Of a stretch of 64,000 bases of DNA, positions 57,138 through 62,396 are shown in pieces. A program made the position numbers and the translations under genes. How positions within the stretch are numbered: position 1 is the first letter of the stretch; each line of letters starts with the position of its first letter. The stretch is from the sequence record MW250785; one strand, given 5' to 3'. Source of the stretch: Escherichia phage UPEC03. Under the pieces are notes generated by a model. It saw only the letters and a program-made list of their open reading frames with translations. It was not told where the DNA came from and made no database searches.

Positions 57138-57761
57138 TCACCCATTATGTTTGAAGTATTCGATCTGACGCAGACGTTTTTCTGCTGCCTCTTTCGAATC
57201 ATATTCACCAAGTTCTTTCGTGCGATCATGGTTCAGCACAACCCACTTATCGCCGCGATGTTCGATGTGCTCCGTGATGTCTTCAACTTTCTTATCAAGA
57301 TCCAGCGGTTCAGCATCTTCCTCGATAATAGTCAAATCTACGGGCAGTGTCAACAGTCTTTTAACTCCGCTGATATCTTCGATGCGGGAATCATATGCGA
57401 GCGTTACGTGTGGTTTGTAATCGTCATAATCGTATGTTGCTCCAGCATCCATTGCATCTTTGAAGCGGCTATGGAGATAATCAGATTCCAGAACGCCCAC
57501 GATCGTATTACCGTATTTCGTTTCCCACTTCTCCACGTCAACCAGTCGGGCAGGTTCAGAGATACCGGAGGCAGGGAACAGATCAACCGTCTTACGGCTA
57601 TACACAATCGTTGTATGCAGTTTTGCAGCGGAAACAGGATTCTCTACACCCAGAAGTTTTTGCACCTTCGCGAGCGCTTCACAGGAAGCCTGATCGAACT
57701 TCGCACACATATAGATCCCCGGATCAACTACGGGTTTCGCTACTTCAATAAAACTTTTCAT
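57138..57761 (-). CDS. 57B: 2H phosphoesterase, gp57B / Acb1-like, with ~55-aa C-terminal extension
   Basis: 207 aa. Two H-x-T motifs (LHTTIVYS, PHVTLAY). Lies directly downstream of 57A as in T4. The extra C-terminal segment is GDKWVVLNHDRTKELGEYDSKEAAEKRLRQIEYFKH. Confidence 0.6.
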   Translation of the reverse strand: MKSFIEVAKPVVDPGIYMCAKFDQASCEALAKVQKLLGVENPVSAAKLHTTIVYSRKTVDLFPASGISEPARLVDVEKWETKYGNTIVGVLESDYLHSRFKDAMDAGATYDYDDYKPHVTLAYDSRIEDISGVKRLLTLPVDLTIIEEDAEPLDLDKKVEDITEHIEHRGDKWVVLNHDRTKELGEYDSKEAAEKRLRQIEYFKHNG

Positions 57762-58089: not shown

Positions 58090-58758
58090 TTACACTCTTA
58101 AAAGATTGAATACATTAAGCACGTTGCGTTTCAAATCGTCTAACGTACCATTATTTAGGATTGTATAATCACTCAAGCCAGGTGTCAAACCTTTCTCCGT
58201 TGAATGATTATCTTCAATACCAGTTTCACGTTCAAGGAACACAAAGCGAGTCCCGAACTTGCTCAGGTATTTATATTCGTGCGGTTGACGCACATCGGTA
58301 ATGATAAAGTGATCCGCGTAGGATTTCAACATTTTTTGAAGCGCAATTGAAGTCCAGATAGACGGATCTACTTTACAAACAATATCAGTCCCGAACACCT
58401 GCATCAAACGGCGAATCGTCCAGGGCTGGGTGTTTTCTTCGCAAATTTTATGAGCGATAACATCTGCGTTACTCATGAAGAACCCGCGAGAACTTAATTT
58501 TTTGATACCGCTAGAAAACAGCGTGTATGCATCGTTATTGGACATCACCAGCGGGGCTTCACGATCACCCTCATAGAATGGGTTCTTCGCTGCCAGCGCT
58601 CGCAATTGCGTGTTATCGTGATGTTCCATAGAACGTTTCAGGATAGCTTTGATTTCGTCGGCTAACGCGATAACTTCAACATTGCGGAAGTTATGCACAA
58701 CCATTTGAGCAACGGTATCTTTACCCGTTCGCTTTTTACCACAAATACCATAAATCAT
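58090..58758 (-). CDS. 1: Deoxynucleoside monophosphate kinase (gp1)
   Basis: 222 aa. GKKRTGKDT P-loop variant, WTIRRLMQVFGTD, ITDVRQPHE and a C-terminal NNGTLDDL block, as in T4 gp1. Confidence 0.85.
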   Translation of the reverse strand: MIYGICGKKRTGKDTVAQMVVHNFRNVEVIALADEIKAILKRSMEHHDNTQLRALAAKNPFYEGDREAPLVMSNNDAYTLFSSGIKKLSSRGFFMSNADVIAHKICEENTQPWTIRRLMQVFGTDIVCKVDPSIWTSIALQKMLKSYADHFIITDVRQPHEYKYLSKFGTRFVFLERETGIEDNHSTEKGLTPGLSDYTILNNGTLDDLKRNVLNVFNLLRV

Positions 58759-59294
58759 TTTTGCGTTTTCCGTGGAGTAGGCACGATCACCCGTCCGTCG
58801 ATCTCAATTTCCATGTGAGCGAAGTTGAACATCGTCATACAGGATACGGCTTCATCCGAATCATTGGTATACATAAGCTCAAGCTCTCCGAGGTTGGAGG
58901 GCCAAGCGCCATAGAAGCGAAATGTCGCTACAGTTTTTGACTGCGAGTTATCCAGGATATGCAAAGCCATTGCCTGTTGTGGTTCACTCCAACGCACGGA
59001 ATCGAAGGTGTTAAAATCGACAGTACCGAGCATCCAAAGGTAAACCCCAAGATACGATCGCAGTTCTTCATCAACAGCAAAACGAATAGTCAGTGGATCG
59101 AACTCCATTGCAGATCCTGGGATCTTCCCTCGAATCATTGGGTTCAGTGGGACATCCGTAATTGGAATGTTGATAGAAGGTAGTGTAACACCCTGAACTT
59201 GTAGTTTCAACCCTTTTACATAATCATTGTCAGGAATATCTAACATGAAGTTAGTAGGTGAAATCTGGTTCAGGATCATAGCAGTTGTATTCAT
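58755..59294 (-). CDS. 3: Tail completion / tube terminator protein gp3
   Basis: 179 aa from ATG 59294 (SD GGAG). gp19-family pattern (MEFDPLTIRF...WPSNLGELEL). ATGA-coupled to gene 1. Confidence 0.65.
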   Translation of the reverse strand: MNTTAMILNQISPTNFMLDIPDNDYVKGLKLQVQGVTLPSINIPITDVPLNPMIRGKIPGSAMEFDPLTIRFAVDEELRSYLGVYLWMLGTVDFNTFDSVRWSEPQQAMALHILDNSQSKTVATFRFYGAWPSNLGELELMYTNDSDEAVSCMTMFNFAHMEIEIDGRVIVPTPRKTQK

Positions 59295-59313
59295 GATGAT
59301 CTCCATTTTATAG

Positions 59314-59321: not shown

Positions 59322-59332
59322 ATCAAGACCGT

Positions 59333-59489
59333 GAGCGAAGCGAACACACGAACGAAGTGAGTGTTATGTACGATGTACTGTTTATAATATTTATATTTTA
59401 TATATAGAGAAAACAGTACATTTCCGTATACTTTTTATACAATCGTTAACTATCCGTCTTCGCTTCGCTTGACGGAACTCGCTTCGCTC
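59333..59489. repeat. Inverted repeat GAGCGAAGCGA / TCGCTTCGCTC flanking an AT-rich core
   Basis: Arms at 59333-59343 and 59479-59489, each next to a GATC. Further CGAAGCGAA-type sub-repeats lie in both arms. Confidence 0.7.
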
Positions 59490-59517
59490 GCGATCTAATT
59501 TTTAGTTGATCTATTCA

Positions 59518-59540
59518 ATAAATAGGTATATCATACCTAT
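59518..59540 (+). promoter_or_regulatory. Late-promoter-like ATAAATAG followed by an 8-bp palindrome
   Basis: ATAAATAG (59518-59525). ATAGGTAT-ATC-ATACCTAT (59522-59540). About 38 nt upstream of ATG 59563. Confidence 0.45.
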
Positions 59541-59562: not shown

Positions 59563-60348
59563 ATGAAATCATTCAAAGAACTACTTTCTGAATCTGTTCA
59601 GAACAAAAAATTTGCTAAGACCGTTGATCTGGTTGACCGTGGTAACGCTGCAAAAGGTCAGATCGGTTTCCTGCATTTTGCACATGGTGCTGATTACGAT
59701 GTGTATGCGCCGGACTCCCACGATCTCGCTTACTTCGGTAAAGGTGTTGTCCGCCTGAAAGGTAAAACCACTGGTAAGACTCAGGCAGCGTATATTGACT
59801 GGGCGAAAGGCACTGTTTCATTCTACAGCGGTGATCCTGCTGACGATCTGAAATTTGACAAGCCACTGAAATTCAAAGGCGCTTCCCTGTACAAAGAAGC
59901 CGAAGAAAACCTGGATCTGTACAATCAGTTGGCGGAAGATTTCGAGATTGATCTGCCTCTGGATGAAGCATTGGTGAAAGGAAAGGTGTACAAGCTCCCA
60001 AGTAACGATATGTGCTTGCTGTATACCGGACGTACCAAAACCAAAGAAACAGGTGAATACGCCGTGTTTACGGTTGTAGATGCCTCTGGTAAGCCTCGTC
60101 TGGTATCGGGTAAACGCTTTACCCAGGAATACAAAGGTGATGTTCTGTCTAAACTGGTTCTAGCTGAATCAGAAGATTTGAACGAAGCCGCTAAAGATAT
60201 TCGCGAAAAAGTTATTGCGGTGTTGGTGAAACGTGGGTTTAACGAAAAAGACGCAGAAAAGATGGTTGATAAAAACCTGAAAGATGCGATGAAGGTTCGA
60301 CCTGGCGCAACCCCTGGCAAACTCGCGGAAATCGTGAGTATCCTGTAA
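59563..60348 (+). CDS. Internal head protein-like protein with capsid-targeting-sequence-like N-terminus
   Basis: 261 aa from ATG 59563. MKSFKELLSE|S mirrors the T4 IP capsid targeting sequence MKTYQEFIAE| (prohead-protease L/I-x-E site). Lys-rich body. Confidence 0.6.
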   Translation: MKSFKELLSESVQNKKFAKTVDLVDRGNAAKGQIGFLHFAHGADYDVYAPDSHDLAYFGKGVVRLKGKTTGKTQAAYIDWAKGTVSFYSGDPADDLKFDKPLKFKGASLYKEAEENLDLYNQLAEDFEIDLPLDEALVKGKVYKLPSNDMCLLYTGRTKTKETGEYAVFTVVDASGKPRLVSGKRFTQEYKGDVLSKLVLAESEDLNEAAKDIREKVIAVLVKRGFNEKDAEKMVDKNLKDAMKVRPGATPGKLAEIVSIL

Positions 60349-60352
60349 AAAT

Positions 60353-60383
60353 AAAGCCCCTTCCTTTCGGTTGGGGCTTTTTT
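60353..60383 (+). terminator. Rho-independent terminator
   Basis: AAAGCCCC...GGGGCTTT followed by TTTT, between convergent genes. Confidence 0.75.
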
Positions 60384-60384
60384 G

Positions 60385-61239
60385 TTAATATCTGTTCCAA
60401 ACTTTCTTCGCGCTGTATGGTTTTCCTTTGGACTGGAAAGCCTGTGTAGGCAACCAAACTGCTTTCGCCCAATCTTTTGGGGCGATCTCTGCAAGTGGTG
60501 AACGTAGATGGGCTGGCAGATAGGCTTTGATCATTTGATCAGCCCCGCGCATTCCCTTCACGTTGTTCCAGTTGATTTTCAGTCTGGTTTTGTTAGAAAG
60601 TCGATCTGTTGATCCGTAGCCACGTTTCAGGAGTTCTTCTAAAAACTCTTGACGTGCTCGCGGTGGCGCATAGTGCAAGTTCAGCCCGTAAAGAACCAAG
60701 TTACCCGCTTTCGAACGTCCTGAACCCAGGAAAATGATCAGCGGGAACCGATCCCAGTATGGCAGGGTGTCTTTGTATTTCGCATCGTAGATGAACGTAT
60801 ACAAACGACCCGTTGCTGGTTTCGCAACCCTGTGCGTCTTAATGCTGGTTTTGATGAAATCACCAAACCAATCGGTCGAATCTTTCTGACGTTTCGCAGC
60901 GGTTACACCAACAGTCATTTTCTTCAAACTGTTGCGGAAATCGTTTACGATATCAACCGCGTGTTTTTTGCGATAATCATTACGTTTGCGTCGGGCTTCG
61001 GTTTCTGCTTTACGGCGTTCGATTTCATCATCAATCTGCTGCTTATAGCGGTGCATAGACTTTGTGAACGTTGCGTATGCAATCCCGTTTTCGTCCGCGA
61101 ACTTTTTGGCTGTCATGCCTTTTAATTTTGCGCGTCGGAATTTGATACCAAGTTCAACCCATTCACCCAGCTTTCGCTTCGGTGGTGGTTTTGGCTTGTC
61201 TTCTTCTGCGATGATCTCGAACTCAAAAATAAAACTCAT
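60385..61239 (-). CDS. 2: DNA end-protector protein gp2
   Basis: 284 aa. YDAKYKDTLPYWDRFPLIIFLG and LNLHYAPPRAR are typical of gp2 as recalled. Confidence 0.8.
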   Translation of the reverse strand: MSFIFEFEIIAEEDKPKPPPKRKLGEWVELGIKFRRAKLKGMTAKKFADENGIAYATFTKSMHRYKQQIDDEIERRKAETEARRKRNDYRKKHAVDIVNDFRNSLKKMTVGVTAAKRQKDSTDWFGDFIKTSIKTHRVAKPATGRLYTFIYDAKYKDTLPYWDRFPLIIFLGSGRSKAGNLVLYGLNLHYAPPRARQEFLEELLKRGYGSTDRLSNKTRLKINWNNVKGMRGADQMIKAYLPAHLRSPLAEIAPKDWAKAVWLPTQAFQSKGKPYSAKKVWNRY

Positions 61240-61260: not shown

Positions 61261-61728
61261 TTATTGCCCTTTCCATCCGAACACACGTTTCAATGTGTCC
61301 TCTGTGATGATCTTGAACTCCCAGCCCTTTTGTTTTGCTGCTGCATTCGCGGCTTTCCATTTGTCAATGTTTACTGCATACGTATACAGTGCATCAACGA
61401 ATTTCTTTTTGTTGTGAACGTTGTTGTTCGCTGGCTTAGGTGGGGGCAACGTTTCTTTCATCGGTTTGACTTCCCAAAGGTAGGTCACTCCATTATCCAT
61501 TTCGACATAGAAATCCATGAAGTAACGCCGTCGCTTTCCGTCTGCGTTGCTGAAATAAGGGATCACAACGCATTCTGAATTCCACCTCTTTACGTGGGGA
61601 TTTCGGTCTAACCAATTCATTATATATTTTTCCCATGAAGAACGATATGTTATTTTTCTGGGATCTCCTTTATACTTTTCTATCTGTTGTGGCATAAAGG
61701 AACCTTTGTATGTCTGTCTTCCAGTCAT
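61261..61728 (-). CDS. 4: Head completion protein gp4
   Basis: 155 aa. KYKGDPRKITYRSSWE..VIPY..YFMDFYVE..WEVKP resembles T4 gp4 as recalled. Confidence 0.8.
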   Translation of the reverse strand: MTGRQTYKGSFMPQQIEKYKGDPRKITYRSSWEKYIMNWLDRNPHVKRWNSECVVIPYFSNADGKRRRYFMDFYVEMDNGVTYLWEVKPMKETLPPPKPANNNVHNKKKFVDALYTYAVNIDKWKAANAAAKQKGWEFKIITEDTLKRVFGWKGQ

Positions 61729-62396
61729 TATTTCACCTTACAATTATCAAAATGCCACCTATACATTGCTCTGGGGTTTCCTTCTTTTCCGCAATGTGGA
61801 CATATTACAGGTTTCGTGTTTTTAGCTGAGTCGCGCATCTTTTGTTTTGCTTCTTCGCTAATAATTCTTCCTGTTAACGAAGCGCTAAGGTTATCTCTAT
61901 GCTCTTTAGAACGGTTTGACGCAACTCTACTCATTTTTTGTTTGAATTCATCACTTCTCTTTATTCCGGTCATCCCTTCGGAAATACTTTTCTTGTGTGC
62001 TTCTGATAGCGGTTTCCCTTTTATTGATTCTCGTCTTTTTCGTTTCCAATCATCGCTACGTGGTGGGTGTTTAGTCCCTATAGAATTGATTCGATTTTGT
62101 TCGGCTACTTTCTCTCTGATCCATCCGTAAGTTCGAGAAGTCATTCTTCCAGAATGAAATCTTGATGCCATTGACATCATCTTACACGCGTATATAAGTT
62201 TTCCGTTTGTTGGGTACATTTTGACGAGTAGTTGATGGGCGAGATAGTGTTCTTCGGCAGTGAGACAAACGATATTTTCGGGTTCGTCCATTCCTCCCAT
62301 ACACCGAGGGATGATGTGATGGTTTTCTGAATACCCGCTTATAGTTCTTGATTGTGCTCTTTTGATAAGAAGTTCATAGTGTTTGCGGTAATTCAT
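61728..62396 (-). CDS. Free-standing HNH homing endonuclease (Mob-like)
   Basis: 222 aa. HHIIPRCMGGMDEPENIVCLTAEEHYLAHQ plus basic repeats (SEAHKKSISEG.., SKEHRDNLSAS.., EEAKQKMRDS..). Paralog of 33162-33920. Confidence 0.8.
   Translation of the reverse strand: MNYRKHYELLIKRAQSRTISGYSENHHIIPRCMGGMDEPENIVCLTAEEHYLAHQLLVKMYPTNGKLIYACKMMSMASRFHSGRMTSRTYGWIREKVAEQNRINSIGTKHPPRSDDWKRKRRESIKGKPLSEAHKKSISEGMTGIKRSDEFKQKMSRVASNRSKEHRDNLSASLTGRIISEEAKQKMRDSAKNTKPVICPHCGKEGNPRAMYRWHFDNCKVK

Follow-up and report, generated by a model that had tools for sequence, protein, structure and literature searches.

What does a T4-like phage encode in a gene that stands alone on the plus strand between its genes 3 and 2, both of which are read from the other strand? 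The question is raised by an open reading frame (ORF) for 261 residues in a 64,000-nucleotide stretch of Escherichia phage UPEC03 (sequence record MW250785), the whole of which is referred to below as the window. An initial annotation had likened the product, which begins MKSFKELLSESVQ, to the internal head proteins (IPs) of T4 because of a capsid-targeting sequence (CTS) at its N-terminus. Proteins injected with phage DNA act before phage gene expression, and among them are the best-known anti-restriction factors, mature T4 IPI and P1 Dar. We conclude that the N-terminus of the 261-residue protein is, as judged by its sequence, a canonical copy of the T4-type capsid-targeting/propeptide leader, and that the protein is probably directed into the prohead and cut after Glu10. 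On balance, we favour the view that it is a lineage-specific head-internal protein of RB43/KP15-type phages that is packaged and ejected.

The N-terminal leader

The first ten residues, MKSFKELLSE, fit the rule for T4 head propeptides, M-x-x-Φ-x-E-Φ-Φ-x-E. This pattern is common to the leaders of T4 IPII and IPIII (MKTYQEFIAE/A, the slash marking the cut), gp24 (MAKINELLRE/S) and Alt (MELITELFDE), the exception among the T4 leaders compared being IPI (MKTFKEFTST...ITE/A), whose propeptide is longer. The context of the predicted cleavage, ELLSE/S, resembles the ELLRE/S of gp24. In an alignment of 17 homologues, from which the conservation of the leader was judged, F4, K5 and E10 do not vary, Leu, Phe, Met or Tyr stands at position 7, and Leu or Ile at position 8. 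Amber suppression in T4 assigned targeting mainly to residues 4 and 7 and processing to residues 8 and 10, and in a T4 leader with Asp at position 10, cleavage was blocked and targeting was kept (PMC9026906, a review of Black's work). The positions conserved in the homologues are those needed in T4 for targeting (4 and 7) and cleavage (8 and 10), which bears out the initial assignment of a T4 CTS-type N-terminus, together with the expectation that the decapeptide be conserved in orthologues. The gp21 protease and the gp22 scaffold are both encoded by Cronobacter phage leB, a 99%-identical relative with a complete genome, by genes that lie outside the 64-kb window; the cleavage site of leB gp23, LAE/AEIAGDHGY, is also kept, which points to an unchanged L-x-E specificity. 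The N-terminal helix (residues 4–13) is modelled by AlphaFold2 at low confidence, with a predicted local distance difference test score (pLDDT) below 50 for residues 1–13.

The discriminating power of the motif was gauged by scanning its generalised form, M..Φ.EΦΦ.E, over all ATG-initiated ORFs of at least 40 residues in six frames. The window yields a single match, the 261-residue ORF, and the whole 178-kb leB genome likewise yields one, its orthologue. In a control scan covering 94% of the T4 genome (1,484 six-frame ATG-ORFs), the motif picks out exactly five ORFs, gp24, Alt, IPII, IPIII and gp61.1, the first four of which are known gp21-processed head proteins. The fifth, gp61.1 (NC_000866, 18966–19130, minus strand; 54 residues), starts MKTFKEFIKE, a perfect CTS-type leader, and it may be a small head peptide so far overlooked. 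Similar 53-residue ORFs (MKSFKEVMNEDMVAGD) adjoin primase genes at two metagenomic loci in the IMG/VR collection (L081 and L091).

A wider view of the leader came from a degenerate DNA pattern encoding M-K-[ST]-[FY]-x-E-Φ-Φ-x-E, with which IMG/VR was searched; this gave at least 128 matches in at least 120 stretches. Among the matches listed, 116 of 128 are plausible ORF starts, homologues of T4-type core genes occur at 68 of 120 loci, and the late-promoter motif (N)ATAAATA lies within 80 nt upstream of 27% of the leader ORFs as against 7% of other ORFs at the same loci (p = 3e-10). The leader ORFs fall into at least 66 unrelated clusters, and many of those at loci L021–L140 adjoin gp13–gp17 or gp20–gp24 modules. 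When a permuted pattern that carries equal information and likewise begins with ATGAAA was run over all of IMG/VR, 76 matches were obtained. Only seven of them are ORF starts and only six lie at T4-like loci, none having the late motif upstream; the two scans differ in their proportion of T4-like loci at p = 7e-13. Because of this contrast between the leader scan and its permuted control, we take the leader to be a real, portable module linked to the T4 superfamily.

Gene, locus and expression signals

The window is evidently part of a Pseudotevenvirus genome (RB43 group, Straboviridae; taxonomy from the leB record). The 2.6 kb around the ORF share 99.0–99.5% identity with Cronobacter phages Cronuts and leB, Enterobacter phage PF-CE2 and others, and the identities of genes 3 and 2 are taken from annotated relatives 99% identical to the window. 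No paralogue of the 261-residue protein was found in the window. By tblastn, 177 phage records match the protein, nearly all of the listed orthologue-bearing records annotating a hypothetical protein; it also matches PHROG 7322, a family with no assigned function, at E = 1.6e-171. This missing functional annotation is the sole point in favour of reading the ORF as a frame left open by chance in a lengthy intergenic region. Against it stand 66–100% protein identity over 261 residues in the full-length holders among the matching records, conservative substitutions, a domain structure that is kept, a promoter and a terminator of its own, and the PHROG match itself. The likelihood of a chance frame is negligible; we exclude it, and the gene is real.

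In Pseudotevenvirus the orthologue always lies between gene 3 and gene 2, and the same slot is occupied in Slopekvirus KP27 (80% identity), Pantoea phage Phynn (66% identity) and a 94-kb metagenomic contig. The record of Morganella phage vB_Mm5, with an orthologue of 35% identity, begins at the gene, so that the gene 2 side alone is visible. Elsewhere the slot is empty or differently filled. Genes 3 and 2 are separated by only 106 bp in T4, nothing stands between them in Aeromonas G2, Vibrio PVA23 or Acinetobacter PhT2, they are adjacent with no orthologue between them in Morganella phage MP1, and in Karamvirus KaAlpha a homing endonuclease occupies the position. The family is small, only 24 proteins reaching E ≤ 0.001 when 1.84 billion representatives were searched exhaustively with HMMER, and a profile search with the distant N-domains (see below) found no new relatives. 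Because the same slot is kept across genera, down to 35% identity, the gene is an old, fixed component of the RB43/KP15-type clade, and the idea of a hypervariable, recently inserted cassette has to be given up.

A late-promoter motif, AATAAATA, precedes the gene. It occurs three times in the window, each time before a late gene, the other two copies belonging to gene 2 (61265, minus strand) and a baseplate-hub gene (22696, plus strand). In leB the same variant, cAATAAATA, precedes gp23 and gp232, and its presence before such bona fide late genes upholds the earlier proposal of a late-type promoter of the gene's own. In most of the phages that Nolan et al. (2006) studied, RB43 included, either A or T occupies position −13; their supplement predicts a late and an early promoter, Pl:103833(+) and Pe:103832(+), directly before the RB43 orthologue, which starts at 103904. 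In distant homologues the corresponding upstream position is taken by a perfect TATAAATA. Lying across the late motif is a sigma-70-like TTGATC-N17-TATCAT, which is present also in Phynn and in a metagenomic homologue (L012). Such dual early and late expression is no argument against a head protein, because T4 ipI, ipII and ipIII each have an early-type GTTTAC-N17-TAnnnT promoter upstream; no TATAAATA was found within 130 nt upstream of these three genes. Instead of the Pseudotevenvirus repeat cassette described below, the region upstream of the orthologue in Klebsiella phage KP27 (L007, positions 1190–1350) has densely clustered GATC sites, along with two sigma-70 promoters that come close to consensus (TTGACC-N17-TATAAT and TTGAAT-N17-TATAAT).

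The gene ends at an intrinsic terminator shared with the convergent gene 2. The hairpin at 60353–60380 is flanked by a U-run on both strands and folds with −17.1 and −16.4 kcal/mol (z = −4.9 and −4.2). Its 2x2 internal loop hid it from a simple terminator scanner; in KP27 a bidirectional terminator is annotated at the same place. The terminator proposed near 60353 is thus a strong one, acting in both directions.

The mature protein and its relatives

The alignment of 17 homologues divides the protein into the leader, a conserved beta-rich N-domain, a middle domain and a variable C-terminal part (Table 1). The predicted mature protein, residue 11 onward, has 251 residues. In close relatives, the C-terminal part, here a three-helix module matching phrog_9411, is replaced, lost or duplicated: the forms found are the 48-residue module, none at all (RB43 and a 204-residue form), a different helical module of ~68 residues, both of these modules in tandem, and an unrelated module of ~100 residues. 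The variability expected of the gene as a whole is therefore confined to its C-terminal third. The phrog_9411 module is found also in metagenomic proteins of other architectures, and two small metagenomic proteins (P0026 and P0032) consist of the leader and the C-module alone, on contigs too short or uninformative for their genomic context to be read. In leB, a stand-alone 53-residue paralogue of the C-module, without a leader, is encoded directly downstream of denV (NC_048645, 10411–10572, minus strand), where T4 has ipII.

Table 1. Features of the window at and around the 261-residue ORF
Feature	Position	Strand	Remarks
Gene 3 (tail completion/sheath stabiliser)	58755..59306	-	Divergent left neighbour; annotation of relatives
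Quasi-palindromic intergenic cassette, ~170 bp	59326..59496	.	Upstream of the 261-residue gene; repeated
Sigma-70-like TTGATC-N17-TATCAT	59506..59534	+	Overlaps the late motif; hexamers kept upstream of the distant homologues examined
Late-promoter motif AATAAATA, context tcAATAAATAgg	59517..59524	+	38 nt before the ATG
261-residue ORF, PHROG 7322	59563..60348	+	ATG at 59563; stop codon included
Leader MKSFKELLSE, codons 1-10	59563..59592	+	T4 capsid-targeting/propeptide type; predicted prohead-protease cut after Glu10 (L-S-E/S), before 59593
N-domain, residues 11-125	59593..59937	+	Beta-rich, conserved; motif DSHD..YFGKGVVR...DW.KGT..F...D..F..P.KFK
Middle domain, residues 126-205	59938..60177	+	Modelled at lower confidence; absent from some shorter homologues
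C-terminal three-helix module, residues 211-258 (48)	60193..60336	+	phrog_9411
Intrinsic terminator, bidirectional	60353..60386	both	Shared with convergent gene 2; folding and KP27 annotation
Gene 2 (DNA end protector)	60385..61239	-	Convergent right neighbour; annotation of relatives

The body of the protein had been described as lacking any recognisable motif, and our searches agree. Pfam searches with the whole protein and with four segments gave nothing above threshold (weak hits to Nmad5, KIX and DUF7421 at E = 0.01–0.25), and neither the protein nor a profile of the C-module had a significant match among Protein Data Bank sequences. Structure prediction, which had been suggested as a check, gave an AlphaFold2 model of moderate quality, with a mean pLDDT of 67.6 (N-domain ~80, C-module ~72–85). 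Its C-terminal 48 residues are predicted to fold like the three-helix bundle of UBA domains and RuvA domain III, a likeness confined to the C-module of a predicted model; at the sequence level, the C-module has no Pfam match to RuvA_C or UBA and no significant similarity to either. The N-domain was not assigned to a known family; a structural match to a 118-residue protein of Vibrio phage nt-1 points to a distant copy there. A cluster of His and Asp residues (H38, H41, D44, D51, H53 and D54) was considered as a catalytic metal site and rejected, H38, H41 and H53 not being conserved in vB_Mm5 and Aeromonas phage CC2.

Comparison with head-packaged proteins of T4 sets the leader apart from the body. 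With IPII and IPIII the protein shares a ten-residue leader of the form M-K-S/T-aromatic-x-E-hydrophobic-L/I-x-E, with positions 4, 7, 8 and 10 kept, as well as a phage equipped with a gp21-type protease and gp22 scaffold, and it is, like them, lineage specific and dispensable in the wider T4 family. It differs from them in a mature part with no sequence or fold similarity to theirs, in size (251 residues as against 90 and 183), in isoelectric point (pI 7.65 as against 9.6), in its place in the genome (between genes 3 and 2, theirs being between denV and e), and in having its own late promoter; moreover, IPII and IPIII are hypervariable, whereas the presence and position of this gene are conserved across genera. 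IPI is closest in its first seven residues (MKTFKEF as against MKSFKEL), and ipI lies close to the equivalent site, four genes away in the order ipI-57B-57A-1-3-2, but its body is unrelated and its propeptide has 19 residues. IPI is an injected inhibitor of GmrSD, and no evidence ties the 261-residue protein to type IV restriction. Alt and gp24 carry the generalised leader and are gp21-processed, and Alt is, as here, a larger multidomain protein, unlike the small basic IPs; however, neither an ADP-ribosyltransferase fold nor a capsid fold was detected in the protein. Phage P1 packages its Dar proteins in the head and delivers them along with the DNA, which they protect against restriction. Their resemblance to the present protein is one of functional analogy only, since they are unrelated in sequence and are targeted by another mechanism.

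Proposed role, other loci and implications

In the reading that we favour, the gene would be transcribed alongside the structural genes from its gp55-type late promoter and probably also from the overlapping sigma-70-type promoter. The amphipathic leader would steer the protein into the scaffolding core as the prohead assembles, and there the gp21-type protease would cut after Glu10 (L-S-E/S) to leave a mature protein of ~27.7 kDa inside the head. By analogy with T4 IPI–III and Alt, this protein would leave the head alongside the DNA in the following infection and act on a host target. It would do so as a conserved N-domain with an exchangeable C-terminal part, whose UBA- or RuvA-domain-III-like bundle is most likely a protein-binding adaptor. 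Swapping of C-terminal domains between relatives is the pattern expected of a host-interaction protein, and it therefore lends support to such a role. CTS-bearing cargo in T4-like heads is an established concept; the PHROG 7322 family is without prior description, and its membership of this class is plausible.

A number of observations weigh against this reading. Beyond the leader, the likeness to T4 IPs claimed at the outset breaks down: homology to IPI, IPII and IPIII is rejected (blastp E > 1 outside the leader; hhalign probability 0.4% for the C-module against IPII), the gene lies outside the IP loci, and the mature protein, at pI 7.65, is near neutral where those of IPI, IPII and IPIII have pI values of 9.0–9.65. 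The leader is not uniform among the homologues. The Slopekvirus orthologue has Met-Thr-His before the motif (MTHLKKFKEFLTE), a good AGGA ribosome-binding site preceding the ATG of this start, and the leader of vB_Mm5 is degenerate (MGFKSFIEK...SLDE/S), its first L-x-E coming at residue 27. In Aeromonas phage CC2, gp193 (305 residues) carries the N-domain at its C-terminus and has no leader; its gene sits in a run of small same-strand ORFs, apparently an early gene cluster, which makes the cytoplasm a possible site of action for the body of the protein. Of the five T4 motif matches, gp61.1 is uncharacterised and gp24 is a shell protein, so that the leader alone does not imply ejection. As regards direct evidence, no virion proteome of an orthologue-bearing phage (Pseudotevenvirus or Slopekvirus) was found in the searchable literature. 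The KP15/KP27 paper contains none, the virion data for vB_EcRAM-01 are from SDS-PAGE only, mass spectrometry in the slopekvirus papers serves bacterial identification only, and the ValerieMcCarty phages belong to a different genus, Jiaodavirus, and were not screened for the orthologue. A virion proteome exists for Morganella phage MP1, which lacks the orthologue.

These points bear on two other readings of the protein. Since the motif is shared with gp24, it implies incorporation into the prohead and processing rather than ejection as such, and the protein could be head-associated and protease-processed without being ejected, as an assembly, core or shell accessory that is degraded or kept in the capsid. 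The company of head- and tail-completion genes (3, 2 and 4), a synteny across genera that is stricter than is typical of arms-race genes and more like that of morphogenetic ones, and the non-basic mature protein are all consistent with this, as is the presence of the same motif at the head of a vertex shell protein. We nevertheless consider it unlikely: T4 and the Karamvirus, Acinetobacter, Aeromonas and Vibrio T4-like phages build the same head without the gene, a C-terminal third that is freely swapped or deleted (RB43 does without it) is unlike a structural component, and no capsid or scaffold fold similarity was found.

A somewhat stronger case can be made for a cytoplasmic accessory protein, made early and late for host takeover or anti-defence and never packaged, the N-terminus being a common amphipathic first helix or a translation-favourable start in AT-rich T4-like genomes. 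The conserved sigma-70-like promoter that overlaps the late motif and the two near-consensus promoters of Slopekvirus would suit such a protein, as would the leaderless CC2 N-domain, the leaderless C-module paralogue of leB, the many IMG/VR leader ORFs in replication-gene neighbourhoods (among the matches listed) and T4 gp61.1, which is not a known virion protein. Early-type promoters are, however, shared by the T4 ip genes; none of the T4 motif proteins is a known cytoplasmic enzyme, four of the five being processed head proteins; the conserved positions are exactly those required for targeting and cleavage; and the permuted control speaks against a purely compositional or translational origin of the N-terminus. 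We therefore regard a cytoplasmic role as rather improbable, and packaging followed by ejection remains our preferred reading.

A bolder extension of the packaging proposal is that the portable ten-residue leader (M-K-S/T-F/Y-x-E-Φ-Φ-x-E) loads dozens of unrelated cargoes (at least 66 clusters) into T4-like heads, in many hosts, for delivery with the DNA. The RB43/KP15-type cargo would then be a modular effector with a new-fold N-domain and exchangeable C-terminal adaptors, among which the RuvA-domain-III-like module would engage, as the DNA enters, an AAA+ or recombination factor of the host (RuvB, for example). Taken whole, this scheme is unlikely to hold, and the binding of RuvB is pure speculation.

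A second candidate packaged protein, on sequence grounds, is leB gp232 (NC_048645, 141792–142625, minus strand), a zeta-toxin-like P-loop protein of 277 residues (Pfam Zeta_toxin, E = 4e-8; phrog_5268). It starts MKSFKDFTSLDE/A, which of all leB ORF starts comes nearest to the T4 IPI leader, so that the closer IPI-like leader in leB belongs to a protein other than the PHROG 7322 orthologue. The late motif cAATAAATA lies upstream of gp232, the mature protein has a pI of 9.4, and the first 17 nt of its gene are identical to the start of the gene for the 261-residue protein. Within the window, a 207-residue homologue of T4 57B, a 2H phosphoesterase, is encoded at 57138–57761 (minus strand); its first ATG gives MKSFIEVAKP, a leader-like start without L-x-E, and the counterpart of T4 57B in a related contig belongs to the Pfam family Acb1, an anti-CBASS nuclease. 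Between gene 4 and gene 53, the window holds an HNH-type homing endonuclease of 222 residues (61728–62396, minus strand; motif HHIIPRCMGG), where leB has no annotated gene and a gap of only ~80 bp.

Gene 3 has its perfect late promoter, TATAAATA (59395–59388, minus strand), within the intergenic cassette upstream of the 261-residue gene (Table 1). The cassette has outer arms GAGCGAAGCGA..CACGAACGAAGTGAGTG, inner arms ATGTACTGTTTATAATATTTATA and TATATATAGAGAAAACAGTACAT and GATC-rich flanks, and there are three copies per genome, in leB (NC_048645) at 31.9–32.05, 101.2–101.37 and 135.5–135.64 kb, with a core of ~75 nt that is nearly identical in all three. The copies lie between rnh and gene 55, between gene 3 and the 261-residue ORF, and between gene 24 and uvsY. 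Because the T4 record annotates origins beside rnh (oriG, in gene 34), in gene 5 (oriE) and at uvsY (oriF), the cassettes may be replication origins, or else mobile regulatory cassettes.

Phages of the RB43/KP15 type are widely isolated on Klebsiella, Enterobacter, Cronobacter and Citrobacter as candidates for therapy. If the 261-residue protein is packaged, it would be a defined candidate determinant of host range or anti-defence in these phages, and its leader would provide a ready-made tag with which to load foreign proteins into RB43/KP15-type heads. The motif controls, for their part, yield a simple and testable rule for finding cargo in any T4-like genome.

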